A stretch of 64,000 nt of DNA from Pseudomonadota bacterium (GTDB taxonomy: Bacteria > Pseudomonadota > Alphaproteobacteria > Micavibrionales > UBA2020): positions 581 to 64,580 of the forward strand of contig JAEXMB010000033.1 in the NCBI GenBank assembly GCA_023444705.1, given 5' to 3'. A model generated the notes under the pieces. It saw nothing but the letters and a program-made list of their open reading frames with translations, was not told the DNA's origin and did no database searches. A program made the translations under genes and the position numbers. Below, one piece after another: positions 24,350 through 44,713 of the stretch (its first letter is position 1; each line of letters begins with the position of its first letter).

Positions 24350-24373
24350 ACTCGTTTGTCCTTGTGATAAGCG

Positions 24374-25772: not shown

Positions 25773-25796
25773 TGTATTCTCCTCTTTTTTTGAAAA

Positions 25797-28700
25797 TTAG
25801 GCGTGTAGACGCCCATAACCTTTGGCGACGTAGTCGAACCGACGGCTGACGCCCTCACCCGCCGCGTTGAAAAACCGCAGGTAAAAGCCCGACGGGCCAA
25901 TATCTTCAACGCGGTAGTAATCGCCGCTACTCAGGTCATGCGGCGTAATCTGGATCGCCGGGACATCACGAAACGCATGCGCGAATGAAACCACCGCGCC
26001 GCCAGCGTCAAAGCCGCCGATACTGGCGCTTTCATAGCGGTCAGGCATGTCGATGCACACCCGCAGGGTTTCGACCACAGGCGTTATTGTTGCGTCACTG
26101 CTGCCCAGCAACAGGCGGAAACGAAAGGCGCGCGCCGTGTAATCACCGACTGTCAGATCCGACCATGCCGACCATCCGCCTTCCGCCTCCGGTGTATCGA
26201 CAGTCGTGGAGATTTGCAGACGAACCGACCATGCGACAGGATCAACCGTTGAATCCCATGACTCACCCGCATCGACATCGCCCCACTGGTCGACCGATGT
26301 ACTCATATCAAGACCCTGCGCACCAATGACGGCACTCACCCGCGAAGTGTAAACCTCACCCAGATCATGGATCGCCATGAACGCATACGCGCCTTCGGCG
26401 CGCAGGCCTGCGATGCCGGTATCAAGCGAGACAACCGCATCGATATTTTCCAGGTCGTCCATCTCGTCCGCGCCATCCAGACGCAATGCGCCTTCGATAC
26501 GCGCCAGACCTGTCTTGGTACCGACAAAATGATGAGCTGCCTCATCTATAGCGATAACAGCGTTATACCCCTGAAGCACGCCCATCGGCGATTTAGCCAC
26601 GGCGGCCCGCACGCTGGCGCGTCCGCCGACATCGACGGCTTTGATCAGATAACTTCCCGGCAGAGCGGGCAGCGCGATTGTCGTCGCATCAAGCGGGACG
26701 ATCTGCGCGATATCAAGCGCATTTGACCACTCGGCACCTTCTGTTTGCGCGCTATGCCTGATGCAGTAATGCGAAAGGTCAATATCACTGACCGCTGGCC
26801 AGCGCAGGTAAGCGACATCGCCCACCACACTGATATCAAGCGCTTCGACATCCGATGGCAGGGCAGAGGTCCCTGCTACCTGATAGCCGCCGATCAGACG
26901 CGGCAGGGAGCGCGTGTTATTGGCCGCGAGATAGCGGAGCTGGATGTCATAGCGTTGCCCCTCTTCCACACCCACGATCGAGATTTGCGTTGGCCCTTCG
27001 CTTAAAATATCGGCAGGAACAAACTTGCTCTCGCCCTCACCACGGATCAGCACCTGCGTTGTCAACGGATGGCTGTAAGCAGGCGGAATCAACGTGACAA
27101 CGATACGCGTGGTCAGTGAACCATCCGCATTGCGGATCAGCGATTCTTCACCCGACTGCACCTCCGCAACATCGGGCGCGGGCGGCAGGCGCGCCGCATC
27201 ATCAAGTGTAATATTGCTCTTGAAGGGCGGGATCACCCCCTGATCGGCCTGATAAATCTCCGGTGCCGCGTCAACGCATGTCAGACGCGCGCTCAGGTCA
27301 CCCTGTGGCTCGATCGACTTAACGACCAGCGCAACGCTTTCCTGACCACTTTCGCCAAACATGACAAGGTCACCCGCTTGCGGTGCCTGCTCCGCTTCAA
27401 GTGGCTGCGCCAGCTGTAGCGTTTTGGACTTGCCCGCAAGTGTTTGCAACCCCACCAGCAGACTGCCGCCTGTTTTGGTGCGGCAACGCAGGCTATAGGA
27501 CTTTCCGGCCTCTTGGCTTGTTTCAGTGTCAAGAGCGATAGCGGTAACTTTGCCGTCCTCGTCCGTCTCCAAGCCTGTGATGCGCGCCGATGACAAGCCG
27601 AACATCGGCACGTCATGCGTCAGACGGATTAGATCCCCGCGCGTGCAAACCAGATGTTCGATATCTGCATTGAATTGATAGGTTTCGGGGCGCAGCAACG
27701 CCGTGGCCAGATGGTAGCGCCCGTGCTTCCATGCCTGTTGCGCACTGGTCACACCAGCCAGTTCCAGCGTTTCGTAATGACTGGCCGTGCTTTCGCTAAA
27801 GCCATCGGCGAAAACCAGACGTTCATCTGCTGTCCACCCCTTGTCGCGGTTGACAAAGCGCACGCGCAGGGCCTGCGGCTGCTCGTCAAAGGCCTTGTGC
27901 GCCTCAAAAGCGAAGCTGTTGCGTGGCGTAAAATGCTGCACAGGGACAGATTGCGCGATATCCTCGACCACCGACCACTTGCCGTCGACAATCGCGGGAC
28001 TGGCACGGCCAAGCGCTGCCACATCTTGCAATACCTCGCGCACCGATGTGTCATAGTTGATGATTGCATCATAGGCATAGCCTGCCTCGCGGCAGCGTCC
28101 GTGCCAATCCTCGATTTTCTGTACGTCCAGGCGCAGGTCGGCCAGCGGGCGGTTGTTGCCCGCCCCCTGCAACACATGGCGATAGATGGCGGCAGGGTTG
28201 GACGTCGGCTGCACGATCCATTCACTGCCGGTAAAATCAGGGATCAAGGCCTGCACCACACCGTTAAAGCGGTCGACAATGCCGTTGAGCTGGTCGGTCG
28301 CCTTGATGCGCAGTGCCGTCATCGCCAGTCCCTGCATGCGCACCGGCGCGCTTGAGCGCACGCTGCGCAATGCCGTCCACATGCACTCGTCGAAAATATC
28401 GTCATTGGCCGCATCCGCCGTCAGACGGCGCAGACGCACATCGTATTGGCCTTTTGGCACCTTGAAGCTGACGGCACGGCGTAAAGTCGTGGCCTGTTTG
28501 GCCGTGATCGACAGCGGGTTATATTTCAGCTTGCCCACCGCAATGGCAAGCTGATCAGCAGCCACGCCTGCACTGACAAGAAAGTCGCCTGATGTTTCAA
28601 ACGTAACGCCCGCCGCCGACGGCAGGCGCTCATCCATCAGCGCGCCGGCAGCAATGACACCCGCAGCGTCAGAGCGGCGCATAACTTTCGCAAGACTGAT

Positions 28701-29882
28701 ATACCCCGCAGGCACCGCAGGGGGCAGCGCCTCCCCGCTATCAAGCCCCTGACGATGCACATCGCCCGCCAGCACTTTCAGACTGGCCGCAGCGGGGTCG
28801 AGGACGACCCGGTCGATGCGCGTTGTCAAATAACCAATACCGCCACTCACATAAGCCGCAGGCGCTGGCGCCAGCGTGACTGTAGCCGCATCGACCGCAC
28901 GGAATTCCTGCGCGCCCGTACTCCAGTTTTCCGTCCCCGCTGGGGCGTACTGCACTTCGACTTCGACCGTGGCGGGTACCTTGGTACTGCCCTTGAATTT
29001 GAACAGACCACGCGCAAACGTGATGTCAACGGAAAGCTCCTCCGCATCCGCCTCGCTTGTGCGGGTGACATAGCCCGCGCTGTTGCGCAGCACGACCTGA
29101 AGGTCATTTTGCAACACAGCGTTGCTATATAACGTCAGCGGCAGGTCATCCACATACCCCTGCCGCGTTTCGATTTCAACGCCTTCAAATTCGGATAGCG
29201 GCGTTTCACCGATACGCAGGTCGGTAATTTCAAGCGGCCCATAGCCCCAAACAAACAGCATGCGCAGGTATTGGTCGCTGCCCAGCGTTTCGGTATAGGG
29301 CAAGGCACCCAGCGGCGGCACAAAGCGGTGGCGCCCCAAGACCTTGGGGACACGGGCAAATGCCTCCACGCGGTTTTGCGCGCCATAGATGCTGTAAACC
29401 GGCGCGTCTTTCTGGCCCATGTTATAGCGTGGCCGGGGCGGCGGCGCGAGCGCGTTCACCGCAAGACGGCCCAGCAGGTTGACGCCGCCCAGAATCAGCC
29501 GTGCCGTGCTGATACCAAGGATCGAGCCTGTGGCACCCAAGGCCCCGGCCAGCGAAGTCGCCAGCATCGGACTGGCCGCCAGCACCGCAATCGACAACAG
29601 CGTGCGCAACGGGTTCTTACCCCCGCCGCCACCCTGCGGCACCATACGCACGGTCAGGGTCGTACCCGCCTTGGGGTACACGCGCGCCCAGTCGGATTGC
29701 GCGACTACATGGCCGTCGAGCAACACATGCGCGCACCCGCGCAATACGGGGTCGGGCTGGATGTGCGCCAGCATCGCCGCGAGCGAGGCACCGGCCGTAG
29801 CCGTATGCGTCACACGCTCAAGCGAAAACGGGTGCGGCGCGACGTTGAGCGTAATGTCACTCTGCGGCGTGGTCATCGGCAT
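25797..29882 (-). CDS. host-specificity / central tail-tip protein (lambda gpJ / GTA g15 class) with a gpI-like N-terminal segment
   Basis: About 1360 aa, positioned after the NlpC/P60 gene. The N-terminus (LDGHVVAQSDWARVYPKAGTTLTVRMVPQGGGGGKNPLRTLLSIAVLAASP) looks like tail assembly protein I fused to the J-like body. Start is 29882 or 29876. Confidence 0.7.
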   Translation of the reverse strand: MPMTTPQSDITLNVAPHPFSLERVTHTATAGASLAAMLAHIQPDPVLRGCAHVLLDGHVVAQSDWARVYPKAGTTLTVRMVPQGGGGGKNPLRTLLSIAVLAASPMLATSLAGALGATGSILGISTARLILGGVNLLGRLAVNALAPPPRPRYNMGQKDAPVYSIYGAQNRVEAFARVPKVLGRHRFVPPLGALPYTETLGSDQYLRMLFVWGYGPLEITDLRIGETPLSEFEGVEIETRQGYVDDLPLTLYSNAVLQNDLQVVLRNSAGYVTRTSEADAEELSVDITFARGLFKFKGSTKVPATVEVEVQYAPAGTENWSTGAQEFRAVDAATVTLAPAPAAYVSGGIGYLTTRIDRVVLDPAAASLKVLAGDVHRQGLDSGEALPPAVPAGYISLAKVMRRSDAAGVIAAGALMDERLPSAAGVTFETSGDFLVSAGVAADQLAIAVGKLKYNPLSITAKQATTLRRAVSFKVPKGQYDVRLRRLTADAANDDIFDECMWTALRSVRSSAPVRMQGLAMTALRIKATDQLNGIVDRFNGVVQALIPDFTGSEWIVQPTSNPAAIYRHVLQGAGNNRPLADLRLDVQKIEDWHGRCREAGYAYDAIINYDTSVREVLQDVAALGRASPAIVDGKWSVVEDIAQSVPVQHFTPRNSFAFEAHKAFDEQPQALRVRFVNRDKGWTADERLVFADGFSESTASHYETLELAGVTSAQQAWKHGRYHLATALLRPETYQFNADIEHLVCTRGDLIRLTHDVPMFGLSSARITGLETDEDGKVTAIALDTETSQEAGKSYSLRCRTKTGGSLLVGLQTLAGKSKTLQLAQPLEAEQAPQAGDLVMFGESGQESVALVVKSIEPQGDLSARLTCVDAAPEIYQADQGVIPPFKSNITLDDAARLPPAPDVAEVQSGEESLIRNADGSLTTRIVVTLIPPAYSHPLTTQVLIRGEGESKFVPADILSEGPTQISIVGVEEGQRYDIQLRYLAANNTRSLPRLIGGYQVAGTSALPSDVEALDISVVGDVAYLRWPAVSDIDLSHYCIRHSAQTEGAEWSNALDIAQIVPLDATTIALPALPGSYLIKAVDVGGRASVRAAVAKSPMGVLQGYNAVIAIDEAAHHFVGTKTGLARIEGALRLDGADEMDDLENIDAVVSLDTGIAGLRAEGAYAFMAIHDLGEVYTSRVSAVIGAQGLDMSTSVDQWGDVDAGESWDSTVDPVAWSVRLQISTTVDTPEAEGGWSAWSDLTVGDYTARAFRFRLLLGSSDATITPVVETLRVCIDMPDRYESASIGGFDAGGAVVSFAHAFRDVPAIQITPHDLSSGDYYRVEDIGPSGFYLRFFNAAGEGVSRRFDYVAKGYGRLHA

Positions 29883-30306
29883 ATTCCAGATCGTCAAGGT
29901 AAGTACGATAGCGATAGATGGCATCGATGCGTGACGCCCATCGCGCGCCTGTATAGCGTTCAAGCGCGCTGTTCACCCCGCGCTCCACGTGCAGCATCTG
30001 GCCATCGCCCGCAACTAGCCCCACATGCATGGGCTGCCCGCGCATGCGCATGACCAGCACATCGCCAAGACTTTCGTCACCGCGCGCTACACTGCGCCAG
30101 TCAAGCGCCTCGCGGCTGATCAACTTGCTGATAGAGGCCGCATCAGTGGTGCGGGTATAGTCGGCGACGTAGGACGGCACATGAAAGCCAAACTGCTCGG
30201 CCAGCACCAGGCGCACCAGTCCCCAGCAGTCCAGCCCTGTGCGCTCACGCCCATGTTCCTTGAACGGCAGGCCTATATAGTGGCCAAGCCAGATCGGTAT
30301 CGCCAT
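29857..30306 (-). CDS. NlpC/P60-family tail peptidase (lambda gpK / GTA g14 class)
   Basis: Catalytic Cys context GLDCWGLVRLVLAEQFG and His context GQPMHVGLV. I chose the start at ATG 30306 (MAIPIWLGHYIGLPF). Confidence 0.8.
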   Translation of the reverse strand: MAIPIWLGHYIGLPFKEHGRERTGLDCWGLVRLVLAEQFGFHVPSYVADYTRTTDAASISKLISREALDWRSVARGDESLGDVLVMRMRGQPMHVGLVAGDGQMLHVERGVNSALERYTGARWASRIDAIYRYRTYLDDLEYADDHAAE

Positions 30307-30340
30307 GACGGATGCTCGCTGTGTGCAAAAGTGAAACGCG

Positions 30341-30375
30341 CAACAAAAAACCCGCCAGATCATGGCGGGTTTTTC
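30341..30375 (-). terminator. rho-independent terminator after the small cargo ORF
   Basis: AAACCCGCCA (30348-30357), loop GATCA, TGGCGGGTTT (30363-30372), flanked by an A-run and a T-run. Confidence 0.75.
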
Positions 30376-30396
30376 GGGGAAGAAACTTGAAGCGTA

Positions 30397-30645
30397 TTAA
30401 CGTCCGCCGGGACGGGGACCTGCGACAGATTTATTCGCAGCCGCTTGTGCGACCGGCTCTTCGCCACGCTGGACAAAGAAGGCGCTGAGCGTATCCATCG
30501 AGCGGCTGTTGTCTGCATAGGCGCTGATCAATCTTTCGCGCGCACCTTGCTCGCCAACCGCGTGGTCAAGAGAAGCAAACAGCAGGTTGCCCACCTTTGC
30601 GGTGTCGGGAGCTTGCTGATTGATGAACTGCGATGTCAGTACCAT
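30397..30645 (-). CDS. small hypothetical cargo protein (moron) inside the tail module
   Basis: AAGAGG RBS 7 nt upstream. It has its own AT-rich upstream region (30700-30840) and its own terminator. Tail AGPRPGGR. Confidence 0.6.
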   Translation of the reverse strand: MVLTSQFINQQAPDTAKVGNLLFASLDHAVGEQGARERLISAYADNSRSMDTLSAFFVQRGEEPVAQAAANKSVAGPRPGGR

Positions 30646-30840
30646 TCTCGACCTCTTGTGTAGTCCCTTCGCATAACCAACGCATCGGCTGGTGTTTAAG
30701 TGCCAGCGGGCGGCGTAGTCTGCGTCAGGAAGGCTATCAATTTAACCGATTTTTAATAGCCTAGCTGATTTATTTTCACTTTACCATAAGAAAATGAACA
30801 GATGGTTTACATAGTAATTTATGTGTGGAAAATCATGCTC

Positions 30841-31314
30841 TTAAAATATACCCGGAAACAGGCTGGGGCAAAAACTCCCTGCCGGATAGGGCTCCGCCGT
30901 GAAGTCTTCTATGGTTAAATCCGCCTCGATCACATGCGAATCATAGCGCACGTTGCGCAGGCGAAAGTCGTGAAAAACAGCCTCCACCACATCTGGCTCG
31001 CTTGCGCGCACTACCTCCAGCGTCAATACGGGCGAGGTCGTCAGCTCGCGCAAAACGGCAACAATCTGCCGGTCCACGTTGTCAATGATCAGACGTGCGC
31101 GCGGGGCGCGGCTTTCGTCGTCATCCGGCAGGGTCAGTTCAAAGGGATAGGCCACATATATGTGGCCACGGCTGACCGTATCGACAGCGTCGCTGCTCAC
31201 GCGGATAGGTTCGGCAAGGCTTGCGTGCGTAAAAGTGAGCAAGATGACAAAGGCCTCGCCACTGTCGGCGGCAAAGATCGCCTGACGCGCGCTGGCGGAA
31301 AGATTACGGCTCAT
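30841..31314 (-). CDS. minor tail protein, DUF1833/gpL-like
   Basis: EAFVILLTFTHASLAEPIRVSSDAVD...YVAYPFELTLPDDDESRAPRARLIIDNVDRQIV fits the DUF1833 pattern as I recall it. Confidence 0.6.
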   Translation of the reverse strand: MSRNLSASARQAIFAADSGEAFVILLTFTHASLAEPIRVSSDAVDTVSRGHIYVAYPFELTLPDDDESRAPRARLIIDNVDRQIVAVLRELTTSPVLTLEVVRASEPDVVEAVFHDFRLRNVRYDSHVIEADLTIEDFTAEPYPAGSFCPSLFPGIF

Positions 31315-31667
31315 GGCAAAATCTCAAGCTCAAGGCGCACAGTATAATACTGGCCGTTGCATGCGACCAGCTGAGGCGGCTTGCGAAAGCGCGCGCTGAC
31401 TTCGACATCGCGGCGTGGGTGAATATAAGCAAACCGCGCACTGCCGCCTGCCAGCGTCGTCATGTAAAACGCCTCCAGCACCCCGGTCTGTGCGCCGGAA
31501 AGCAAATAGCTCACCGTCAGCTCGCTCACGCCCGCACTGCTCCGCTGGCGTGTTTTGGCCGGACCCTGATCCATTTTGGAGCGAATAACCGTATCGGCAA
31601 AGTTTTCCTGATAACGGTCAACCAAAGGCTTGGCCGGCAGATCAGCCGGCCATGATGGCATCGTCAT
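31311..31667 (-). CDS. minor tail protein (gpM-like position)
   Basis: 118 aa, ATGA-coupled to the DUF1833-like gene. Confidence 0.5.
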   Translation of the reverse strand: MTMPSWPADLPAKPLVDRYQENFADTVIRSKMDQGPAKTRQRSSAGVSELTVSYLLSGAQTGVLEAFYMTTLAGGSARFAYIHPRRDVEVSARFRKPPQLVACNGQYYTVRLELEILP

Positions 31668-31687
31668 GTTCTCTGTCCCTTCCCTGC

Positions 31688-32002
31688 CTAACGGCCGATC
31701 AGCCCGGGCGCCAGCCCGAACAGGCTGCGCAACACGCCGGTTGTCTGGCGGCCCTGTGCCAGCGATTGCGCCACCATCTGGTCAATGGTGATCTCAAGCT
31801 GCTTTTGGTTCATGACCCCGGTGGTTTCCCGCGCTGTCACCTGTGCCGAACTGTTGTTGTTCACAATAACCTGCACACCGCCACCTTGCCCCTGCCCCAG
31901 CAGGTCTTCGAACACTCCCCGCAGACCTTGCGTCAACTCCTGGCGCAAAATACGGTTGAGTTCCGTCGTCACGATATCTTCTATGGGCCTGCCTGTACTC
32001 AT
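31688..32002 (-). CDS. short tape-measure-like / tail assembly protein
   Basis: 104 aa. It is the only ORF in the slot where a tape-measure gene is expected, between the chaperone-like gene and the tail-tip genes. Confidence 0.4.
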   Translation of the reverse strand: MSTGRPIEDIVTTELNRILRQELTQGLRGVFEDLLGQGQGGGVQVIVNNNSSAQVTARETTGVMNQKQLEITIDQMVAQSLAQGRQTTGVLRSLFGLAPGLIGR

Positions 32003-32007
32003 AACTG

Positions 32008-32424
32008 TTATCCTTTGTCATCGGGGAACAAAGCCTGCATCTCTGCCAGAAAAGCAGACGACGGGGCGGCGTGCGCACCCGCTTTCGGTGCCAGACGGCG
32101 GTGATGCAATGCCAGTTCATGCAGTGTGAGTTCATACAGCGCCGCATGACGCGACAGCCCGCAGGCGACGATAGCAAAATCGCAAAGGGCCTGACGGTCG
32201 ATTTTCCTGCACCCCGCTGCATCCGTATAAAATCCACCCATGTCAAGCAACGGCGCGATAATATCGCACAGCAACCTGCCAAGGGGCGCCGCCTGCGCGT
32301 CGGCCTGCCCGCTGTCGGCGACCGCGCGCGCAGCAGCGAACAAATCGCCGCAGTCTTCAAGCGCACAGGCCAGTGCAAGCGTGACCGGCAAATATGTTTT
32401 TGGCGTAGTCAGGCGCTCGTCCAT
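32008..32424 (-). CDS. tail assembly chaperone-like protein (GTA g10/g10.1 class)
   Basis: Lies immediately after the major tail gene. The C-terminal LSRHAALYELTLHELALHHRRL resembles the GTA 'lTp.El' motif. Confidence 0.45.
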   Translation of the reverse strand: MDERLTTPKTYLPVTLALACALEDCGDLFAAARAVADSGQADAQAAPLGRLLCDIIAPLLDMGGFYTDAAGCRKIDRQALCDFAIVACGLSRHAALYELTLHELALHHRRLAPKAGAHAAPSSAFLAEMQALFPDDKG

Positions 32425-32822
32425 GTACCCGCCCCGCTGCGCGTCAGGGACGCGCTGAACATTTCAAGCCCGTCATAACTGCCTTCGCGGCGATAGGTTT
32501 CCACCACGAAGTTTGCTTCGTAAGTATCCCCGTTGGGAAACACCATACGGTAGCACCTGATCGCACCACTCTCCGCCGCGTGCCTCAGCAAAGCTTCGGC
32601 GGCACTATCCTTGAAAATCCCCTGTAGCGCGATACGTGCGCTGCGGTTGCCCGCCGCTGCGCAATAGGCCGCCTCGCCCGTGCTGCCAAGTGCCGTTGTG
32701 CCTGCAAGGTCGTTTGCGAAATCAAACGCCGTCGCACGCGCGGCACCCAGTGTCAGAAACGTCATCGGCTCGCCATCATCCGCGATTTTCAGCAATAGCC
32801 CACGGCCTGCATAGCTCGTCAT
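32409..32822 (-). CDS. major tail protein (small GTA g9 / TP901-1-like class)
   Basis: 137 aa. Sequence GRGLLLKIADDGEPMTFLTLGAARATAFDFAND...YEANFVVETYRREGSYDGLEMFSASLTRSG. Sits between the tail terminator and chaperone genes. Confidence 0.6.
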   Translation of the reverse strand: MTSYAGRGLLLKIADDGEPMTFLTLGAARATAFDFANDLAGTTALGSTGEAAYCAAAGNRSARIALQGIFKDSAAEALLRHAAESGAIRCYRMVFPNGDTYEANFVVETYRREGSYDGLEMFSASLTRSGAGTWTSA

Positions 32823-32825
32823 ATC

Positions 32826-33245
32826 CTAACCCTCGTCTTTTTCGATCACGACACGCAGTGCATAGGTGCCGCGGTATGTCTTGCCGTCGCCCATCAGCTG
32901 CACCTGCGCCGCCCCGCCCTGCTGAAGAACAACCCGCTGCCCTTCAATAGTAAGCGGGTTTGACAGCGCGCTTGCCACACCGGCAAGAACATCGCGCGCC
33001 TGCGCACCACCCGCCTGATCGCTATAGACCGCGCAAACCACCTGACAATCATCAAGCGTGTCAGCCTGGGTCGATAGCGGGCTGCTGGCGATCGACTCGA
33101 TCACGACATAAGGAAATTTGCCTTTCGCAGGCGCATAGGCACCAATACCCTGCTCTGCGTCCAGCAATAGCGACACCAGCGGCGCATGGCCTTGCAATGC
33201 CAGAAATACAGCCGCCTGCACGGCAGCATGATCGGGAACAGACAT
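32826..33245 (-). CDS. tail terminator/completion protein (DUF3168-like, GTA g8 class)
   Basis: AVFLALQGHAPLVSLL...KFPYVVIESIASSPLSTQ... pattern and its position. Confidence 0.55.
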   Translation of the reverse strand: MSVPDHAAVQAAVFLALQGHAPLVSLLLDAEQGIGAYAPAKGKFPYVVIESIASSPLSTQADTLDDCQVVCAVYSDQAGGAQARDVLAGVASALSNPLTIEGQRVVLQQGGAAQVQLMGDGKTYRGTYALRVVIEKDEG

Positions 33246-33331
33246 AAAGCCGCCTTCTCCTTGCTGTTGGCAATTTTGCCGAAAAGCTCTAAAATAAAGG
33301 GACCATAGACAGCGTCACCACAGGGGTACCC

Positions 33332-33982
33332 ATGACACGTTTTCCGCTTCTGGCCTTTGCCATCGCCCTTGTTCTTGCAACACCGGCCTATGCCGACTTC
33401 GCCGCCGGAAAAAACGCCTATGACACCAAAAAATGGGAACAGGCCATCATCAACCTGCGCCCGCTGGCCGAAAGCGGCGACGCACGCGCGATGGTCTTGC
33501 TCGGCAACATGTACGCGCAGGGTTATGGCGTCACCAAGGACGACAGCGAAGCCTACAAGCTCTACCGCCGCGCGGCACTGGCCGGCAATAACGAGGCAAT
33601 GGTCGTCACTGCCGCAATGCTGCAACAAGGTCTTGGCGTACCAACCGATGTCGCCACTGCGGTGCAGTGGTACAAGCGCGCGGCACAAACCGGTCAGCCC
33701 GGCGGCGCTTTCTTTTATGCGCTTTATCTGTTTCGCGGCAACAACGTCAACGACGCCAGCAAAAACCTGCTGCCCGACGCCCCCCAGGCCTATCAGTGGA
33801 TGCGCATCTGCGAGAAAATCAGCAAAGACCAGAAAATGAAGACAACGGCTGGCAAGATCGCCGATGAAATCGCCAAAAAGATCACGCCGGAGCAAGTCAG
33901 CGCCGCCGATGCCGCCGCCGCAGCGTGGAAACCAACACCCGTCAGTGAACTCGGCCCTGCGCCCGGCATCACCGTACCTTAA
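33332..33982 (+). CDS. secreted Sel1-repeat (SLR/TPR-like) protein; cargo gene on the opposite strand
   Basis: Signal peptide MTRFPLLAFAIALVLATPAYA. Sel1 repeats GDARAMVLLGNMYAQGYGVTKDDSEAYKLYRRAALAGNNEAMVVTAAMLQQGLGVPTDVATAVQWYKRAAQTG. Confidence 0.85.
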   Translation: MTRFPLLAFAIALVLATPAYADFAAGKNAYDTKKWEQAIINLRPLAESGDARAMVLLGNMYAQGYGVTKDDSEAYKLYRRAALAGNNEAMVVTAAMLQQGLGVPTDVATAVQWYKRAAQTGQPGGAFFYALYLFRGNNVNDASKNLLPDAPQAYQWMRICEKISKDQKMKTTAGKIADEIAKKITPEQVSAADAAAAAWKPTPVSELGPAPGITVP

Positions 33983-34362
33983 TCAAGGCGCGCGCCGAAT
34001 ATCCTGCGTCCCAAGAGAAAAATCGCATATTGGCGTGTGGCTGCATCGATGCGTGTCTGCGCGACAAACCATTTCAAAAAAACAGCCGCCGTGTATAAAA
34101 CCGCCGGTGCCCAGTAACGAAACACCACCAGCCAGACAAACAAGAAAACCACAGGCAAGGTATAGCGCAAAAGATCACCGCGATCGGTGATTTTAAAGGC
34201 ACGCTTCAGCGCAACACCACCGTTGCCGGCTGTCACCTCGCGCCAGTCGCCGCCGCGCGCACCGTCCATATAACGCTGCACATCACGTTCAAAACGACGG
34301 TGGTCCCACAGGTGGAAAATAGCCACCAGCCATAAAAACCCGCTGAAAAGAACAAACTTCAT
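33979..34362 (-). CDS. hypothetical 3-4 TM membrane protein inserted in the head-tail joining module
   Basis: 127 aa with FVLFSGFLWLVAIFHLW and LPVVFLFVWLVVFRYWAPAVLYTAAVFLKWF. No counterpart in canonical GTA/HK97 modules. Confidence 0.5.
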   Translation of the reverse strand: MKFVLFSGFLWLVAIFHLWDHRRFERDVQRYMDGARGGDWREVTAGNGGVALKRAFKITDRGDLLRYTLPVVFLFVWLVVFRYWAPAVLYTAAVFLKWFVAQTRIDAATRQYAIFLLGRRIFGARLD

Positions 34363-34371
34363 GCCCGACCG

Positions 34372-34704
34372 TCATTCGCTGCGCACCTGGATCTCAAGAT
34401 ATTCCTTCCGGTGGCCGACATCAAGGACACTCTCCACGATATAAACGGCATTGTCACCCAGCAGCCGCATATCCTCCCTGACATCGGTGCGATAAGCGAT
34501 GGTGATTTTATGGCGCGTGCGGGTTTTCAGCGCCCCGGCCTCCACGCCCCGCGTAACAGCAATATCATCAATTGCCGCATAGACAACCGGACATTCCTCC
34601 GGCTCTTGCCACATCACAGTAGTGCCGCCCTTGCCGTCGGCCACCAGCGTGAAGCCCTGCAGTTTCAAGACATGGCGCAAAGCGCCGCGTGGTTTTTTAC
34701 TCAT
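34372..34704 (-). CDS. head-tail adaptor / head closure protein (GTA g7, SPP1 gp16 class)
   Basis: LRHVLKLQGFTLVADGKGGTTVMWQE...TRHKITIAYRTDVREDMRL...YIVESVLDVGHRKEYLEIQ. ATGA-coupled to the connector gene. Confidence 0.65.
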   Translation of the reverse strand: MSKKPRGALRHVLKLQGFTLVADGKGGTTVMWQEPEECPVVYAAIDDIAVTRGVEAGALKTRTRHKITIAYRTDVREDMRLLGDNAVYIVESVLDVGHRKEYLEIQVRSE

Positions 34705-35348
34705 CGCAGCGATACCTCGCGAAAGGGCGCCAGCAAGGCCGCAGCACCGCACCGTGCCAGCGCGCTATCGCCGCCATCACCACGGTTTGCGTAAAGATAC
34801 GCCGTCAGCTGGCGGATGGCCTGTTTGTAAACCAGCGGTACCGCGCTTGCATCGCCATACCCCGCCACTATGCGGATTTCGATGGCGTTCATTGTGCGCA
34901 GATCCGCAAATCCCGTATCAGCCAGCGACAGCCGCGCGCCAAGGGCATCAAAAGCGTAATCTGTCGGTGCGATGGTGCGCGCGCCACCAGCAACGTCATG
35001 CAGGTAAATCGCCTCGATCGCCTGCACCGGCGCCACAGGCAGGCGCACGGCCAGATTGTCCTGCAACGCCGCACCCTCGCGCACGCCGTCCCACCACACC
35101 ACATTGGTGTCAAGCGGCCAGCGGTCCAGAAACAACGCCAGCGTGCGCGTAACCAGCACTTTGCCGGCGTAGCTTTCACACAGCACACGCGCCGTTTGTA
35201 GCAGCGTGGCAAGTTCGTCATCCTGCACCGTATCGCTTATACGCAGGTGCGTCTTGATCGCCGCCAGTTCAACCGGCTCTTGCCCGGGCGCGGTCAGTTC
35301 CTGCACGCGGTATTCATGGGGTGCCAGTATTTTCAAATGTGGCGGCAT
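34701..35348 (-). CDS. head-tail connector protein (gp6-like)
   Basis: ELAAIKTHLRISDTVQDDELATLLQTARVLCESYAGKVLVTRTL is the typical gp6-like N-terminal motif. Confidence 0.7.
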   Translation of the reverse strand: MPPHLKILAPHEYRVQELTAPGQEPVELAAIKTHLRISDTVQDDELATLLQTARVLCESYAGKVLVTRTLALFLDRWPLDTNVVWWDGVREGAALQDNLAVRLPVAPVQAIEAIYLHDVAGGARTIAPTDYAFDALGARLSLADTGFADLRTMNAIEIRIVAGYGDASAVPLVYKQAIRQLTAYLYANRGDGGDSALARCGAAALLAPFREVSLR

Positions 35349-35417
35349 AGCCTCTCTCCTGCTTGATCAATCGTGCAAAAAGGGCAGGCAGGGCCCCCCG
35401 CCCGCCCTTTTGCCGTT

Positions 35418-35861
35418 TTACGCCTGCGGCTTTTGCGCAAGGTTGCCTTTGATGGCCAGCACAGCGAGCGCACCGCCACTTTCCAGCGACACCGGTGTTG
35501 CGCTCACGCGCACAAAACGCTTGCCGCCCTGATAGGCCAGCGTGTGGCGTTTGTTGGTCTTGCCCGCCGCATCGATAGACAAAAAGATGCCATTGGCCAG
35601 GCCGCTTGCGCCCAGCACATCGGCATCGCCGCAAGCAGCATAGGCGCCTGCGTTGCCGCTGCCGTCGTCATCGGCATGTTCGATCTTCACATCAATGCGG
35701 TTATCCGCGTCGAGCGCATCGCCAACCGCGCCGACAGCCACGATGAAGGCCAGATTTTCCGCGCCCTGCATGTCGATGGCGGCACCGGCCACAGGTGCCG
35801 AGAGTACCGTTTGCGGCGCAACCGCCTGAATGACGGCCAGAGAGTTGATAAGGTCGTGCAT
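35418..35861 (-). CDS. head-associated hypothetical protein (possible decoration/cement protein)
   Basis: AGGA RBS. 147 aa, between the capsid and connector genes. Gly/Ala/Asp-rich. Confidence 0.5.
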   Translation of the reverse strand: MHDLINSLAVIQAVAPQTVLSAPVAGAAIDMQGAENLAFIVAVGAVGDALDADNRIDVKIEHADDDGSGNAGAYAACGDADVLGASGLANGIFLSIDAAGKTNKRHTLAYQGGKRFVRVSATPVSLESGGALAVLAIKGNLAQKPQA

Positions 35862-36076
35862 AGTTATTTTCCTTTCGTGAAAAGAGGGGCATACAGGCCC
35901 GCACGTTCTGGCGGCGCAGAACCACACAGGGGAGATGCGGTTTTTCTGCGCCAAAGGCATGATGCGGGAGGGGAGCCCGAAAACTCATGCCGGACTGCGG
36001 CGGCAAACGCCGGTCATATTCGCCATGATGGCGGGCCTGTATGCAGACGGGAGCGCTATCAACGTCCCGCCAAGGC

Positions 36077-37363
36077 TTAGGCGCTGAATTTCATCAGCTT
36101 GATGGCCTCGAAGTTGACAACATCGCCGCCGACACGCTTCGTCGTATAGAACTTGACGTAGGGCTTGGCAGTGAAGCTGTCGCGCAGGATGCGGATACCT
36201 TGGCGGTCAACGATCTGATACCCCGCCTTGAAATCGCCAAAGGCGACAGACAGGCTGCCGCTGGCGATATCGGGCATATCTTCAGCCTCGACGACGTCAA
36301 AGCCCAGCAGTGTTCCGCCCTGCTTGAGCTGGAAGTCAGGCTGCCACAGATAATTGCCGTCGCCATCCTTGAGCTTGCGCACCTCGGCCAGCGTCGAGCG
36401 CTTCATCATGAAAACCGCGTTTTCGCGATAGGCCGACTTCAGCGCAAAGACCAGATTGATCAGACGGTCGCCAGGGTCTTCGTCGTCAAAGGCACCATTG
36501 GCGCCCGACGCGATCTGCTCGATCACGTTGAAAGCCGACGCCGTCGGCGTACCCGCAGCATAGGTCAGGAAACCGCGCGGCTTGCGCACGCCGTTGCCGG
36601 TGACGAAGGCCTCGTTTTCCATGCGCGCCATGCGCTCGGCAATCTTGCCGGCCAGCCATTCTTCGACGTTGAACATCGCATCGTCGAGCAGTTTTTGCGT
36701 CGCACGCGGCTCGGCATATTGCTCATGCACGGGAATGCGGTATTCGCCGATCTTGGGGCTTGTGGTTTCGCTGCGCGCCTCGTTCTCGCCCACCCAGCCC
36801 GATGTTGCTTCGTTGACATCATGGATGCCTTCAAGTGCGTCGGTACCGATGGTTACCACATTGGCGACCTGACGCAGGGGCGAGGTTTCGCGCACCAGCT
36901 GCGCAATGCGGCCCGACATATCCGGCGTGACGGTATAGCCACCATCGGGATCCGACCCGACGGAGAGCGCCTTGATCTCGTCCACCGCGCTGCCGGCGTT
37001 ATTCTTGCGCACATAGCTGCGGAAAGCCGATTTATAGTTGCGGTAGGCATCGATGCCAAGATCGGCAATGCCGCTGCCTTTGCGCTCCAGCGCGAAGGTT
37101 TCCGCTTCTTTCCACTCATCACCCGCGCTCAGGCGCGAGCCGCGGCTGATTGCGGTTTCCATCTGGTCCAGACGGCGTTTGGCGTTGTCCGCAGCATCGA
37201 TTGCGCGCGTGATTTCACCGTTGAGACGGTTGACCTTCATATCCGTCAGCGGATCAGCGTGCCCGCGGCGCTCGATCTCGCGCAGGCGTTGGTCGTTGGC
37301 ATCCTTGAATGCCTCAAAGGCGCGGCCGAGGTCATAGACCGCCGTTTGAACGTCGTTGCTCAT
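36077..37363 (-). CDS. major capsid protein, HK97 family
   Basis: 428 aa. N-terminal coiled delta-like region. C-terminus NYLWQPDFQ...LLGFDVVEAEDMPDIASGSLSVAFGDFKAGYQIVDRQGIRILRD...YVKFYTTKRVGGDVVNFEAIK. Confidence 0.9.
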   Translation of the reverse strand: MSNDVQTAVYDLGRAFEAFKDANDQRLREIERRGHADPLTDMKVNRLNGEITRAIDAADNAKRRLDQMETAISRGSRLSAGDEWKEAETFALERKGSGIADLGIDAYRNYKSAFRSYVRKNNAGSAVDEIKALSVGSDPDGGYTVTPDMSGRIAQLVRETSPLRQVANVVTIGTDALEGIHDVNEATSGWVGENEARSETTSPKIGEYRIPVHEQYAEPRATQKLLDDAMFNVEEWLAGKIAERMARMENEAFVTGNGVRKPRGFLTYAAGTPTASAFNVIEQIASGANGAFDDEDPGDRLINLVFALKSAYRENAVFMMKRSTLAEVRKLKDGDGNYLWQPDFQLKQGGTLLGFDVVEAEDMPDIASGSLSVAFGDFKAGYQIVDRQGIRILRDSFTAKPYVKFYTTKRVGGDVVNFEAIKLMKFSA

Positions 37364-37390
37364 GTCTTGTTCCTTTTATGCTGTGAATGT

Positions 37391-38083
37391 TCAGGTCAGC
37401 GCGCGGATGCGTGCCGCCAGGTTGCGCAATGCCGCAACCGCATCAGTACCGCCGTCGCACGTCGCAGGCACGGCATCCCGCCAGGCCTCACCATCCGCGC
37501 AAAGCGACTTGTAGCCATCGGCCAGCAGGGCCTTGGCTTGTTTGCGGCTTAGCCCTGCATCCCGCAGGAACGCCTCAAATTCTCTTTCCGTCGGCATCTC
37601 GCCGGTGGCCAGCGCCGACTTCACGCGGACAATGCGCGCGCTGTCGTTGGCCGGAAATGTCACCATCGACACCTCCAGAAGGTCTACATCGGTCAGAACA
37701 CGCACGCCGCTTTTCTGGTCGCGGTGGGATTGTCGCACGCGGTAGCCGATGGACAGGCCATTGACGACTTTTTCCTGCATAAGCTTATACGCCTCGCGCG
37801 CACGTGCGATATCGGCGACGAACAGGTCGCCTTTGACGTAGAGGCCGCGGCTGTCCTCGTACATCTCCCGCCATGCGCCGATGGGTTGTGCCGTATCATG
37901 CTGCCATAACAGTGGCGGCAGGCGTTGCCCGCTTTTCATTTCTGCAAGACAGCGGCGAAACGCCCCGGGCGAAATGCTGTCGCGCACGGAGTCAACAACA
38001 TTGAAAACCGACGCATATCCTTCGAACTGCCCGCTTTCCGCCTGAAATTTGACCTCAAAGCGGCTTTCCATCTGCTTGTGCAT
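37391..38083 (-). CDS. prohead protease, HK97 family
   Basis: GQFEGYASVFNVVDSVRDSISPGAF...PLLWQHD...IGAW...GLSIGY pattern. Confidence 0.85.
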   Translation of the reverse strand: MHKQMESRFEVKFQAESGQFEGYASVFNVVDSVRDSISPGAFRRCLAEMKSGQRLPPLLWQHDTAQPIGAWREMYEDSRGLYVKGDLFVADIARAREAYKLMQEKVVNGLSIGYRVRQSHRDQKSGVRVLTDVDLLEVSMVTFPANDSARIVRVKSALATGEMPTEREFEAFLRDAGLSRKQAKALLADGYKSLCADGEAWRDAVPATCDGGTDAVAALRNLAARIRALT

Positions 38084-38086
38084 CGC

Positions 38087-38386
38087 TTATCCCTCGTCCG
38101 TTGTAAAGACCCGCGCCAGCAACGACGCCACCGCACTGCGGTAACGCTCAAAACCCTGCGCAACCATGTCCTGCCCAAGCGCCATATAGTCGCAGGAACA
38201 TCCCGCGCGCGCCAAAAGGATATGGCAGAGGCTGACCAGCTCACCCGCCGTCCACGCACCCTGCGTCAGGCGCGCATACACCATGCCAAGACTGCCCATT
38301 TCATCTTCGATCTCGCAGATCGTGGCGAAATCAAGCGTGACACGATACAGCCGCTGCGCATACGCCAAAGCAATATCCGCACTCAT
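38087..38386 (-). CDS. small GTA g3.5-like protein between portal and protease
   Basis: I chose the start at ATG 38386, which is ATGA-coupled to the portal stop. 99 aa. The position matches the small ORF of GTA clusters. Confidence 0.45.
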   Translation of the reverse strand: MSADIALAYAQRLYRVTLDFATICEIEDEMGSLGMVYARLTQGAWTAGELVSLCHILLARAGCSCDYMALGQDMVAQGFERYRSAVASLLARVFTTDEG

Positions 38387-39675
38387 GACAAGCGGTCTCC
38401 GTCGGGTAGCGGTCCCATGCCAAGGGCCTGGCGTTTTTCGTTGATGGTCATGAATGATGCGCCGGATATACGCGTCCATACTTTTTCGCGGCGCGGGGCC
38501 AGCGCCTCGATATGGTCGAGGTCATAATCGATGTGGATATCGTTACCGAATTGCGGCGCCAGCCATGCGTTCAGCTCTGCCTTCATATGTTCGACCAGCG
38601 GCAGGATAGCGTCATCATAAAGTGCCAGCCGCGCCTGCTCGAAATTGGCGAAGGTCAGCGATCCTTCAATGCCGATCAGCTGCGGCGGCACATGAAAGGC
38701 CAGCGCAATCTCGCGCGCCGATACGTCCTTGCCCGCCAGCCAATCCATATCCTTGGGGCTCAGCGACATCTCGCGCCAGTCAAGCCCGCCTTCCAGCACC
38801 AGCGGGCGGCCCGCGCGGTCACTGCCGGTATAGTATTGCTCAAGCTCGCTGCGCAGGCTGGCGCGTTGCGCCTCGGTCAGCGTATCAGGTGCATCGGCAT
38901 GGGCAGGCTTGAAGACAAGCGCACCCGACGGGCGGCCCGACGCCTGCAACAGGCTGGCGTTCCAGCGCGCGGCGTCGTTGTGCTGGTCAACGGATACCGC
39001 TGCGGCTTCAAGCGGGCTCATGCCGTACCAGTCATCAAGCGGGTGAAAGGTCTTGAGATGCAAGACATCCGCATAGCCGCTTACCGCATTGACGGGATAG
39101 TCAACGTGTTGCTGGCCCATCTGACAGCGGTAGGCGCCGACCACGCCTTGCGCCGTGGGAATAACGCGCATACGGTCAGGGCGCAGTGTCCACAATTCGC
39201 GCACGCCGCCGTCAAGCCCCCGAATGGCCTCAAGATAGCTGTTACCCGCGATCAGGTAATAGGCATAGACGCTTTCGAAAAACTCCGCCCCCGCCTGCAT
39301 GGGGTTGGGCTGGCGCAGCAGATCCACCAGCGGATGGTCCTGCACCTTGAACCTGCCCTCGCCCGTGCCGCGATAGACAACAAACGGCACACAGGCCGCA
39401 TTACGGCTCACCAGCTGGATAGCACGGTAGGCGACCACATTCTTGCGGTACCCCTCGTCGGCCAGCGTATCATACTGGCGCGGGGTAAAACGCGGCTGGC
39501 CCGCGCCAAACGGCACCATCAGCGTCGCGCTGTGCGAGGCTTTCTGCTCCGGCGCGCGGTGCAAAACCTGTCCATCCATCCGCTCCACAGTATGCGCGGC
39601 GCGCGTAAACCACCCGCGCCAGCCGGTTTTCTTTTCTGCCGTCATCGACATGATCCTTCCTGTTATATTCGCCAC
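38383..39675 (-). CDS. portal protein, HK97 family
   Basis: 430 aa. NSYLEAIRGLDG...LWTLRPDRM...AAVSVDQHNDAARWNASLLQ...LEGGLDWREMSLSPKDMDWL. Confidence 0.85.
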   Translation of the reverse strand: MANITGRIMSMTAEKKTGWRGWFTRAAHTVERMDGQVLHRAPEQKASHSATLMVPFGAGQPRFTPRQYDTLADEGYRKNVVAYRAIQLVSRNAACVPFVVYRGTGEGRFKVQDHPLVDLLRQPNPMQAGAEFFESVYAYYLIAGNSYLEAIRGLDGGVRELWTLRPDRMRVIPTAQGVVGAYRCQMGQQHVDYPVNAVSGYADVLHLKTFHPLDDWYGMSPLEAAAVSVDQHNDAARWNASLLQASGRPSGALVFKPAHADAPDTLTEAQRASLRSELEQYYTGSDRAGRPLVLEGGLDWREMSLSPKDMDWLAGKDVSAREIALAFHVPPQLIGIEGSLTFANFEQARLALYDDAILPLVEHMKAELNAWLAPQFGNDIHIDYDLDHIEALAPRREKVWTRISGASFMTINEKRQALGMGPLPDGDRLS

Positions 39676-41138
39676 ACGGTCGGCTTGGCAGGCGCCATGC
39701 GGCCCAGTAAAAGCTCGCTCACCGCCCAGGTGCGCGCATCCATGCGGTCAGGGCTGCCCGCCGGCATCTGCGGGTCAAAACTGCACATCTGGTCTTCGAG
39801 TTTTTCAAACAGGCCGGCGTGGTGTACGCGGCCACTGCTGTCAAGGGCTGCCACCGGCTCCGCACGCGCGACTTTGCCGCGGCTGGCACGCACAGCCTTA
39901 TAAGATACGCCCGGGTCAATCGCGCGCAGTGTTTGTTCGACCAGGTCACCACCCTGATTGACCTCGGCCACCACACGGTCGGCCTGATAGGTGTGATAGG
40001 CATCAATCGCGCGCTGCGCCCACAGGACCGGCGGCATGACACCGCTGAGGTCATCCAGCACATAGGCGTGTCCGTGCGCGTCGCACCCCGCCACGATAAT
40101 GCCCGTTTCATCGCTGCCCGCATGCGCCGTCACTGCGGGATCAACCGCGACGACAATACGCGTCAAGGTTGGAACATCGGCGCGCGTCATGCGGTTGCGC
40201 GCGATCGTTTCGCGCGACCATAGCGCACGCGGATGATCGGCCTGAAAGGCCTCGTCCGGATCACAGGGATATTCGCGGCGAAAACGGTGCGCACCACCCA
40301 GCTCGGCGATTTTCGCGCGCCGCCAGAACACCTGCGCTTCGTCAAGACCATAGCGCTGCATCAGCGCCTTTTCATCTTCGCCCAGAATGAACAGCGCCGG
40401 TGGCGTTTTACGGTATTCGTCCTGCCAGAACCACGGCACGAAGATAAAACGATACGGCGAATTACCCTGCCGTGCGCGCTGGCACAAATCATAGAACAGC
40501 CCGGCCGGACCGGCCGAGGTGCTTTCAAGAATAATCTCCGTCCCCGCGACATCGGGCACAGCTTGCAAAACACCGGCCATATGGCGCTCTGCATGCGGCC
40601 AGTAGGCGACTTCGGAGCCGTGAAAAAGCTGTACGGTATCCGAACGCCCCACATCCTGGGAGCGCGCCGTACCAACACGGTAACTCGCGTCCAGACGGTC
40701 AAAGACAAGTGCCCTTGCGTTCAGCTGGCCCGCATGCGGCTTGACCACTGCCGGACAGTGTTCGTGAAAGCGCCGCACAATCTGGTAGACGTTGCGGCTG
40801 GCATCCTCAAGATGCGTCAGGATAAAAGCGCGCATACCGCGTTGATGCGTCAGGCGCCAGTAAAACCGCCCCTGCACATAAGTCGAACAGCCTTGCTGAC
40901 GGCCCTTGAGAATGATCGCGCGCACGCGCCCTTCCTGCCGCCGCTGTTCTTCCAGCACGTGATGGATATATGCCTGCGCCGCATTCAGCGTAAACGGCAA
41001 TACCCAGCCCTGCTTGCTGCGCAATTTGAGACATTTTTGCGCATAATGCGCGAAGTCGTCGCGCAGGCGCTGGCGCAGCGCACGTTCATCCGGCGTCATG
41101 CGTGTCAGGCAAGCTGTTGCAAAGCGTCTTCGTGGCAA
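39663..41138 (-). CDS. terminase large subunit
   Basis: 491 aa. ATPase motif AIILKGRQQGCSTYV. Nuclease-half acidic motifs VAVDPA...GSDETGIIVAG and ADRVVAEVNQGGDLV. Confidence 0.85.
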   Translation of the reverse strand: MPRRRFATACLTRMTPDERALRQRLRDDFAHYAQKCLKLRSKQGWVLPFTLNAAQAYIHHVLEEQRRQEGRVRAIILKGRQQGCSTYVQGRFYWRLTHQRGMRAFILTHLEDASRNVYQIVRRFHEHCPAVVKPHAGQLNARALVFDRLDASYRVGTARSQDVGRSDTVQLFHGSEVAYWPHAERHMAGVLQAVPDVAGTEIILESTSAGPAGLFYDLCQRARQGNSPYRFIFVPWFWQDEYRKTPPALFILGEDEKALMQRYGLDEAQVFWRRAKIAELGGAHRFRREYPCDPDEAFQADHPRALWSRETIARNRMTRADVPTLTRIVVAVDPAVTAHAGSDETGIIVAGCDAHGHAYVLDDLSGVMPPVLWAQRAIDAYHTYQADRVVAEVNQGGDLVEQTLRAIDPGVSYKAVRASRGKVARAEPVAALDSSGRVHHAGLFEKLEDQMCSFDPQMPAGSPDRMDARTWAVSELLLGRMAPAKPTVWRI

Positions 41139-41347
41139 TAAGCCGAAGCGTCATCCGCCCCTGATACCGGCGGCTTGACCGCATAGATCTTGAGCAATGA
41201 CAGCGCGACGTTCACCTGCGTCGGCGTCATTTCATGTTCGCCCAGCGCATGCGCCTGCAACACGGCAACAAGCGCCGCCGTATCGGGAACGATATGCACA
41301 GGCGGCTGTCTTCGCGCGGGCGAAGCCGTTTTTTTGCGTGATGTCAT
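41105..41347 (-). CDS. small protein upstream of TerL (possible small terminase / g1-like)
   Basis: 80 aa from ATG 41347. Assigned on position only. Overlaps the TerL start. Confidence 0.35.
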   Translation of the reverse strand: MTSRKKTASPARRQPPVHIVPDTAALVAVLQAHALGEHEMTPTQVNVALSLLKIYAVKPPVSGADDASAYCHEDALQQLA

Positions 41348-41515
41348 GGGAAAATCTTTTCGGTTGGCAGGTCGGTGTGGCTGAACCTGATAAGCGATGA
41401 TGAACAAAACCTATCAAACATGACCCCGCAGCACCAGCACAAACGCACACACGCCAGCATCACGGCATGTAATCGCTTTACGTGCCAACGCTTTAGACAC
41501 GAAACTTTTTCTCCG

Positions 41516-44689: not shown

Positions 44690-44713
44690 GCCTCCATAAA
44701 AAACAATCGCGCG

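Follow-up and report, generated by a model that had tools for sequence, protein, structure and literature searches.

An antisense Sel1-repeat gene with its own predicted promoter at the head-tail junction of a phage-derived cluster in an alphaproteobacterium

The window considered here, a stretch of 64,000 nucleotides (64 kb) from contig JAEXMB010000033.1 of the Pseudomonadota assembly GCA_023444705.1, carries a phage-derived head-tail gene cluster of about 18 kb, in which a gene for a Sel1-repeat (SLR) protein is placed antisense to the structural operon, between the genes for head closure and tail termination. Comparison with related clusters indicates that this gene is an old insertion that became fixed in the whole element family. 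A first reading of the sequence, hereafter the original prediction, had described two open reading frames (ORFs) between a head-tail adaptor and a tail terminator, and their coordinates, strands and sizes were matched exactly by the present analysis. The features of the junction are the following:

34372..34704, minus strand: head-closure (head-completion) gene, upstream border of the insert (Pfam Phage_HCP, E=1.6e-14; TIGR01563; phrog_25)
33979..34362, minus (structural) strand: orphan membrane-protein gene, 127 aa (ORF call, conserved family alignment)
33979..33982, both strands: overlapping convergent stop codons of the Sel1 gene and the membrane-protein gene
33332..33982, plus strand: Sel1-repeat gene, 216 aa, antisense to the structural operon (ORF call, Pfam Sel1)
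33332..33394, plus strand: predicted Sec signal peptide, residues 1-21, with cleavage after A-Y-A (heuristic reading)
33267..33295, plus strand: sigma-70-like promoter TTGGCA-N17-TAAAAT facing the Sel1 gene (consensus match)
33246..33331, no strand assigned: divergent intergenic region of 86 bp, from tail-terminator start to Sel1 start, holding the tail-terminator ribosome-binding site (CTCCTT on the plus strand)
32826..33245, minus strand: tail-terminator (tail-completion) gene, downstream border of the insert (Tail_completion_gp17, E=6.5e-13; phrog_176)

Genes and signals at the junction

Both inserted ORFs are real genes, since 43 near-full-length homologues were found for the Sel1 protein (42-99% identity) and 8 for the membrane protein, and since their ratios of nonsynonymous to synonymous substitution rates (dN/dS) ranged from 0.09 to 0.33. 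The 216-aa product matched PF08238 (Sel1) with E=5.7e-16 and 58.8 bits, well above the gathering threshold of 30.7, two Sel1 repeats being scored individually, and the profile of its family matched 34 SLR chains in the PDB. The AlphaFold2 (AF2) model, with a predicted local distance difference test score (pLDDT) of 93, was all-helical and presented 10 paired helices after the signal peptide, in the manner of an alpha/alpha solenoid, the first 20 residues having low pLDDT. Foldseek returned LpnE, LceB, c5321, HcpC and SEL1L at probability 1.00; the top structural matches in the PDB were the Legionella proteins LpnE (6deh) and LceB (8sxq), followed by E. coli c5321, Oxalobacter SLR proteins, HcpC, SEL1L, AlgK and MotX. 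Viral matches comprised giant-virus and a few phage Sel1 proteins whose function is unknown. The family alignment revealed about four SLR units and 30 invariant columns, and the C-terminus carried a family-specific W-x-P...LGP-x-P motif, beyond which many members have a variable tail rich in Pro/Glu/Ala. As modelled, the protein has the SLR fold and is a protein-binding scaffold of about four repeats.

The N-terminus begins with M-T-R, a positive n-region, followed by a hydrophobic core at residues 4-16 and the sequence A-Y-A|DF. This assignment, made by heuristic inspection of the sequence only, gains support from the preservation of the AxA|(D/G)F cleavage site in 34/34 aligned homologues, and the signal peptide was also present in nine loci from IMG/VR; the original prediction of a Sel1-repeat protein with a signal peptide is upheld on both counts. 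An overlapping antisense ORF of 264 aa at 33101..33895 was discarded as a gene, its length and frame differing in every relative; similar shadow ORFs occur opposite the capsid and portal genes.

The site at 33267..33295 was the sole promoter-like site found in 32000..36200. It ends 36 nt before the Sel1 start codon, and its -35 element begins 19-22 nt from the start codon of the tail terminator, beside the ribosome-binding site of that gene. The pattern TTGnnn-N17-TAnnnT was found upstream of Sel1 in 9/10 orthologous intergenic regions, which stand for about five independent lineages, and on the opposite strand in 0/10, while shuffled intergenic sequences contained it in 0.8/10 on average and in five at most. 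The same pattern preceded Sel1 in 7/9 IMG/VR loci. It had been proposed that transcription of the tail genes might restart within 33246-33331, a proposal for which no evidence was found, the only promoter-like site in that interval facing Sel1. Moreover, no sigma-70-like motif of the minus strand was found in 33246..33331, inside Sel1 or within 700 nt of it, save for one site in one of 11 loci. Read-through is accordingly assumed by default, and the tail genes would most likely be reached by transcription across about 740 nt of antisense Sel1.

At the other end of the gene, the Sel1 stop codon (TAA, 33980-33982) overlaps that of the membrane-protein ORF (complement of 33979-33981), as originally described, and therefore no space is left for an intergenic terminator. 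This junction was tight in the relatives as well, ranging from a 4-nt overlap to a 30-bp gap. On the minus strand, weak candidates consisting of a hairpin and a T-run were detected 46-180 nt downstream of the membrane-gene stop in 9/11 loci; a permissive hairpin scan gave similar candidates elsewhere, and the T-runs come from Lys/Glu codons on the sense strand, so that these candidates are not convincing as a conserved intrinsic terminator.

The membrane-protein gene starts 10 nt past the head-closure stop. Its product has hydrophobic segments at residues 3-19 and 64-80, and its AF2 model (pLDDT 87) shows helices at 2-32, 61-81 and 84-100, together with a small beta-sheet formed by the loop and the C-terminus, both of which are put on the cytoplasmic side by their charged residues. 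An exhaustive profile search over 1.84 billion proteins recovered 42 representatives of this family only; no match was found in Pfam, NCBIfam, PHROG or PADLOC, and no PDB entry matched the model with E<0.9. Nothing marked this protein as a holin: it matched no holin family, and its neighbours are head closure and Sel1, with no lysin. The gene was missing from five loci that carry Sel1 (L005, L090, L101, L102 and L103), and the relatives without it are the most divergent ones where the capsid is fully comparable (66-70% identity). Because these five Sel1-bearing relatives have no membrane gene, the two genes did not enter as one insert, contrary to what the original prediction implied; the pattern of presence indicates that the membrane gene is a separate, later and lineage-specific addition.

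Distribution, age and selection

Related loci were collected from three sources, namely species-representative genomes with capsid relatives, contigs with Sel1 homologues, and IMG/VR. The nearest capsid relatives among the species-representative genomes were seven metagenome-assembled genomes (MAGs) with 70-83% identity, labelled Micavibrio, Alphaproteobacteria, Rhodospirillaceae and, in one case, "Patescibacteria"; the remaining capsid relatives were Hyphomicrobiales and similar clusters with 42-46% identity. The "Patescibacteria" bin is the source of locus L002, and its label is probably a binning error.

Sel1 occupied the same slot in the same antisense orientation in 21/21 related loci that span the head-closure/tail-terminator junction (L001, L002, L005, L007, L081-L083, L088-L090, L093, L094 and L095-L103), across which identity ranged from 66 to 92% for the capsid and from 33 to 85% for Sel1. 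In the 24 more distant outgroup clusters this junction contained no insert. The distance from connector to tube had a median of 780 bp in these 24 loci, versus 1509-2318 bp in 12 Sel1-bearing loci, and the outgroup spacing therefore has room for the two structural genes only. A comparison with related clusters lacking the insert, as had been suggested at the outset, was thus available in the outgroup and not among the close relatives, all 21 of which carry Sel1. Full-length homologues whose context was read (six looked up in the database and 13 further loci) all lay in the cluster slot, whereas outside the family the first homologue, P0044 with a coverage of 55%, was an ordinary chromosomal Sel1 gene, and remoter hits were Sel1-SPOR fusion proteins. 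Deposited phage genomes gave weak generic Sel1 matches only (27-34% identity), none of them in a comparable slot, and a literature search for Sel1 in connection with gene transfer agents, morons or prophages returned nothing relevant.

Pairwise distances of Sel1 correlated with those of the neighbouring genes (r=0.74-0.89), which fits co-inheritance with the cluster better than exchange as a cassette; no sign of independent horizontal exchange of Sel1 between elements was seen. In four locus pairs the dN/dS of Sel1 was 0.115, 0.085, 0.244 and 0.205, below that of the tail terminator and head closure in 3/3 comparable pairs and below that of the membrane gene in 4/4. Judged by these ratios, purifying selection is stronger on Sel1 than on its structural neighbours. 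Taken with the outgroup, the comparison indicates that the Sel1 insertion is real, yet old and fixed in the element family.

A decayed copy of the cluster proved informative in this respect. It lies at 9300..12000 of L085 (also L086 and L087), on contigs of up to 1.4 Mb recovered from several samples. Aligned with the intact relative L093, L085 gave one continuous match of 1.7 kb at 80% DNA identity, which runs from the initial 200 bp of the tail terminator through the intergenic region, Sel1 and the membrane gene into the end of head closure. Lost by three deletions are the stretch from the remainder of the tail terminator to gpM, a portion of head closure, and the stretch from connector to capsid; what remains of the particle genes are fragments of the protease, head-closure, tail-terminator and DUF1833 genes. 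Both Sel1 (293 aa) and the membrane gene (160 aa) have stayed intact, their dN/dS being 0.24 and 0.33, respectively. Being intact and under selection in this copy, Sel1 therefore has a function independent of particle making, and the same probably applies to the membrane gene.

In three clusters of the Pseudolabrys/Bradyrhizobiaceae type, an unrelated signal-peptide Sel1-repeat ORF was observed, also antisense, where protease and capsid are separated by 2.6 kb (L038 8965..9798, minus strand; also L039 and L046). Here, independently, a head module contains a secreted Sel1 gene.

The surrounding cluster and its host

The other genes of the cluster and of the window that are referred to below are listed here:

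23873..41407, minus strand: phage-derived head-tail cluster, approximate extent, about 18 kb
39663..41138, minus strand: terL
38383..39675, minus strand: portal
37391..38083, minus strand: S78-type protease
36077..37363, minus strand: HK97-type capsid
35418..35960, minus strand: unnamed conserved gene
34701..35348, minus strand: gp6-like connector
32409..32822, minus strand: tube
31688..32002, minus strand: short conserved ORF at the tape-measure position, 104 aa (105-150 aa in relatives)
29857..30363, minus strand: NlpC/P60 peptidase gene
25797..29963, minus strand: I-J-like tip protein of 1388 aa, with Lambda_tail_I fused at the N-terminus
24783..25772, minus strand: gene after the J-like protein, with a Pgp3 C-terminal (Chlam_vir) domain
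7268..7906, minus strand: dotD
5998..7290, minus strand: dotC-like gene
4799..6019, minus strand: dotB-like gene
2606..3898, minus strand: gene for a TcpQ-domain protein
42806..48547, 54659..56284, 59547..60743, 48707..49333, 22766..23371 and 9668..10207: ankyrin genes

After the tube gene, the cluster continues with a chaperone-like ORF, the short tape-measure-like ORF, M/L/K-like genes, the I-J fusion, a fibre gene and small genes. The gpL-like gene carries DUF1833 and a gpM-like gene is also present, and the tail-tip families of the window comprise DUF1833, NlpC/P60, Lambda_tail_I, FNIII-A_GpJ and Phage-tail_3. With only a 104-aa ORF at the tape-measure position, the tail is implied to be very short or to have a non-canonical length ruler, as in gene transfer agents (GTAs). 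The product of 24783..25772 probably serves as a trimeric fibre or receptor-binding protein. The ORFs scanned, which were part of those in the 64-kb window and of those upstream of terL in L121 and L128, contained no integrase, repressor or replication domain. The cluster looks like a long-resident GTA or a defective prophage.

Several further observations concern the cluster itself. A gap of low GC (0.46) at 30363..30841, between the gpL-like and P60 genes, contains an ORF of 82 aa (30397..30645, minus strand), and ORFs of 81-85 aa stand at the equivalent place in relatives. Directly after the unnamed gene 35418..35960, downstream of the capsid, a GC-rich hairpin with a T-run (35382..35407, minus strand) may be an attenuator after the head genes. 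The junction of portal and protease, which holds no insert in the window, is a second variable slot in relatives, filled either by a 587-aa PTR-domain protein and a TAC_11 protein or by about 2.5 kb of extra DNA (inserts at L082 15503..17610 and L088 15487..17582; gaps at L001 6733..9301 and in L096 and L097). In the closest relative (L081 16330..17529), the terminase was called as two pieces of 258 and 127 aa, which may reflect a frameshift, a pseudogene or an assembly error.

With regard to the host, the dotD, dotC-like and dotB-like genes and the TcpQ-domain protein constitute a type IVB secretion system of the Dot/Icm type in an alphaproteobacterium of about 60% GC, and more than eight ankyrin-repeat genes lie in the window, on both sides of the cluster. 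An ankyrin array followed by small genes, all on the same strand, was found upstream of terL in the window and in two divergent IMG/VR relatives, where it has three genes (L121 1028..7189; L128 1..3568). Because of the dotDCB genes and the many ankyrin genes, the setting is considered to be eukaryote-associated, and the carrier bacterium probably lives with eukaryotic hosts. The complete head-tail cluster was kept in MAGs labelled Micavibrio or Alphaproteobacteria (L001-L007), whereas the homologues of the Rhodobacter capsulatus GTA (RcGTA) that Shakya et al. (2017; PMC5721377) reported for Micavibrio formed small clusters only.

Interpretation and comparison with known systems

A passenger gene of this type belongs to a well-known kind, and the insertion is neither recent nor unusual. 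We give about even weight to the reading in which Sel1 is an ancient moron-type accessory gene with its own promoter, fixed in the cluster and serving the cell and not the particle. According to this reading, Sel1 would have been acquired anciently and become a fixed part of the phage-derived cluster of about 18 kb, and it would be transcribed from the sigma-70-type promoter at 33267..33295, away from the tail genes and converging on the head operon. Its product would be exported by means of the Sec signal peptide and act in the periplasm or envelope, possibly further out, as a protein-binding scaffold, most likely an LpnE/EnhC-type factor for the envelope or for host interaction that cells make when they are not producing particles; the tail genes would be expressed by read-through over antisense Sel1. 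The timing of expression, the final location of the protein, its binding partner and the benefit to the host are what we infer within this account, which starts from a gene observed in one position and one orientation throughout the family. If exported before use, as predicted, the product cannot be a virion part assembled in the cytoplasm.

The idea of a moron insertion, put forward in the original prediction, is therefore kept in part. In its favour stand the extra gene relative to the outgroup, the predicted promoter of its own, the predicted export and the survival after loss of the particle genes; the insertion is however not sporadic or recent, since it is fixed family-wide and its composition is host-like. 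Likewise, the notion of eukaryote-like cargo agrees with the cargo-like behaviour of the gene and with the dotDCB/ankyrin setting, and a role in virulence or symbiosis would be plausible. Mutually exclusive expression of Sel1 and the particle genes, which had also been envisaged, would be plausible as well.

Several points weigh against the moron-type reading. The predicted promoter is known only as an in silico match to the consensus, and a terminator for the Sel1 transcript was not found: the nearest terminator-like site of the plus strand (34673..34697) lies about 700 nt downstream, at the 5' end of the head-closure gene, where it could end a long Sel1 transcript. The gene does not have the compositional signature typical of morons, as its GC of 0.59 and GC at third codon positions (GC3) of 0.70 are those of the cluster genes (GC 0.53-0.62, GC3 0.58-0.74) and of the host genes (GC3 0.67-0.79). 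It was never absent within the family, whereas morons that benefit the host are usually patchy, and a function tied to the element could account for this. The SLR fold reveals the type of scaffold and not the binding partner, and the named families tried gave no identity: MerG, ExoR and MotX scored 46, 43.5 and 29.4 bits against NCBIfam equivalog cut-offs of 350, 450 and 330, and AlgK, another of the named Sel1-type families tried, was also far under its cut-off. Finally, a Sec signal alone leads to the periplasm, and contact with a eukaryotic host would need a further export step.

A function tied to the element is the core of an alternative that we regard as unlikely, in which Sel1 serves superinfection exclusion or self-immunity: the periplasmic SLR protein would bind a part of an incoming particle of the same family, the tail-tip NlpC/P60 peptidase (29857..30363) or the J-like tip protein being the candidate targets, and would block entry. 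Every member of the family has Sel1, which was never found outside it, its product is predicted to be periplasmic, its promoter is its own and of a constitutive type, and the gene was kept after the loss of the particle genes; moreover, the tail of the element does contain a P60 peptidase. Periplasmic immunity proteins of the SLR type also exist, such as PA5086-5088, to which the model showed weak fold matches (E=0.02-0.04). Such an action would resemble that of T4 Spackle, which inhibits the gp5 lysozyme, of T5 Llp, which masks FhuA, or of tetratricopeptide repeat (TPR) adaptors such as NlpI, which binds the P60 enzyme MepS. Nevertheless, neither sequence nor structure matched a known exclusion or defence protein, PADLOC assigned neither Sel1 nor the membrane protein nor any of six neighbouring proteins to a defence system, and if the element is a non-replicating GTA-like particle, selection would have little reason to exclude it, especially in a lineage whose own particles have been lost.

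It is rather improbable, in our estimation, that the two kinds of role are combined and that Sel1 is the guardian of a domesticated particle system, its protein binding the P60 or J protein of the element's own tail tip, for kin immunity or recipient control, while the convergent promoter gates the tail genes. If true, this dual role of protein and promoter would explain the fixation of Sel1 at the head/tail boundary in the whole family.

The gating component on its own, which we consider very doubtful, would make the convergent promoter, and not the protein, the main object of selection: constitutive transcription from 33267..33295 would collide with leaky late transcription, or act on it as antisense, and keep the tail genes and those downstream of them silent unless late transcription is strong. 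This corresponds to the mutually exclusive expression of the original prediction. In all loci Sel1 kept its antisense orientation and its place at the head/tail boundary, the promoter stands 19-22 nt from the tail-terminator start codon, and the convergent stops and the missing minus-strand restart promoter fit such a lock. However, inheritance alone can keep orientation and position, the protein sequence is under strong purifying selection and its signal peptide is conserved, which shows that the protein itself is selected, and Sel1 was kept in L085, where the tail genes to be regulated are gone; interference of this sort is also compatible with the moron-type reading, as a side effect. A joint role of Sel1 and the membrane protein in lysis or release, particle export or DNA uptake, in which the latter might be holin-like and Sel1 a periplasmic accessory, is similarly improbable. 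In its favour, the two genes adjoin in most loci, the membrane gene runs in the direction of the head genes, its product has three helices with an N-out/C-in arrangement like a class I holin (a positive-inside reading of the loop charges), and the rest of the cluster showed no holin or endolysin that could be recognised. Against it, Sel1 lies on the opposite strand with its own promoter and is not co-regulated with the late genes, five relatives have it without the membrane gene, both genes were kept after particle-gene loss, and the membrane protein matches no holin family and offers almost no periplasmic surface to Sel1.

If the moron-type reading holds, Sel1 would be a clean natural example of a passenger gene made permanent in a phage-derived cluster and selected even after the loss of the particle genes. 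It would illustrate how phage-derived elements can deliver and fix envelope or host-interaction proteins in bacteria that are probably eukaryote-associated. Promoter and gene form a defined, conserved unit, so oriented that its transcriptional interference with the tail genes can be tested directly. No established idea is overturned by this finding.

Among known systems, RcGTA shares with the cluster the gene order from terL to the J-like gene, a size of about 18 kb, a very short tape-measure candidate, a host-like composition and structural genes under purifying selection; no integrase, repressor or replication genes were found nearby in the ORFs scanned here. The cluster differs in its lambda-like tail tip (DUF1833, the Lambda_tail_I-J fusion and FNIII-A_GpJ), which is not of the g12-g15 families; its capsid is only 43-46% identical to those of the Hyphomicrobiales clusters. 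To our knowledge, no gene lies between g7 and g8 in RcGTA. The eukaryotic association module of Wolbachia phage WO, a myovirus-type temperate phage, similarly links ankyrin and TPR/SLR genes to a phage-derived structural cluster in an alphaproteobacterium, and the conserved ankyrin array upstream of terL may recall that module, although the latter is a block at the end of the prophage and not a gene within the head-tail operon.

As regards the protein, Legionella LpnE, EnhC, LidL and LceB and Helicobacter Hcp resemble it in the SLR fold and the N-terminal signal peptide, and the Legionella proteins also in belonging to a host with Dot/Icm. Unlike these, Sel1, which shows 19-27% identity to them, is much smaller (about four repeats, 216 aa), has no cysteine pairs of the Hcp type, has the family-specific C-terminal W-x-P...LGP-x-P motif and is encoded inside a phage-derived operon. 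T4 Spackle, T5 Llp and phi80/N15 Cor are, as Sel1 would be, small exported proteins of phage-derived elements with expression independent of the late genes, and T5 llp adjoins and opposes a structural gene; no sequence or fold similarity to them was detected, and the likeness is a functional speculation.

Lambda bor and lom are lysogenic-conversion genes within the late region. They differ from Sel1 in the type of product, which here is soluble, of the SLR type and headed by a type I signal peptide, and not a lipoprotein or beta-barrel, and in that Sel1 sits at the head/tail junction, is fixed and not patchy, and has no compositional difference from the host. They are like it in being extra genes among late structural or lysis genes, with their own promoter, an envelope-targeted product and presumed expression when the late operon is silent, and bor, as Sel1, is transcribed against the late operon.

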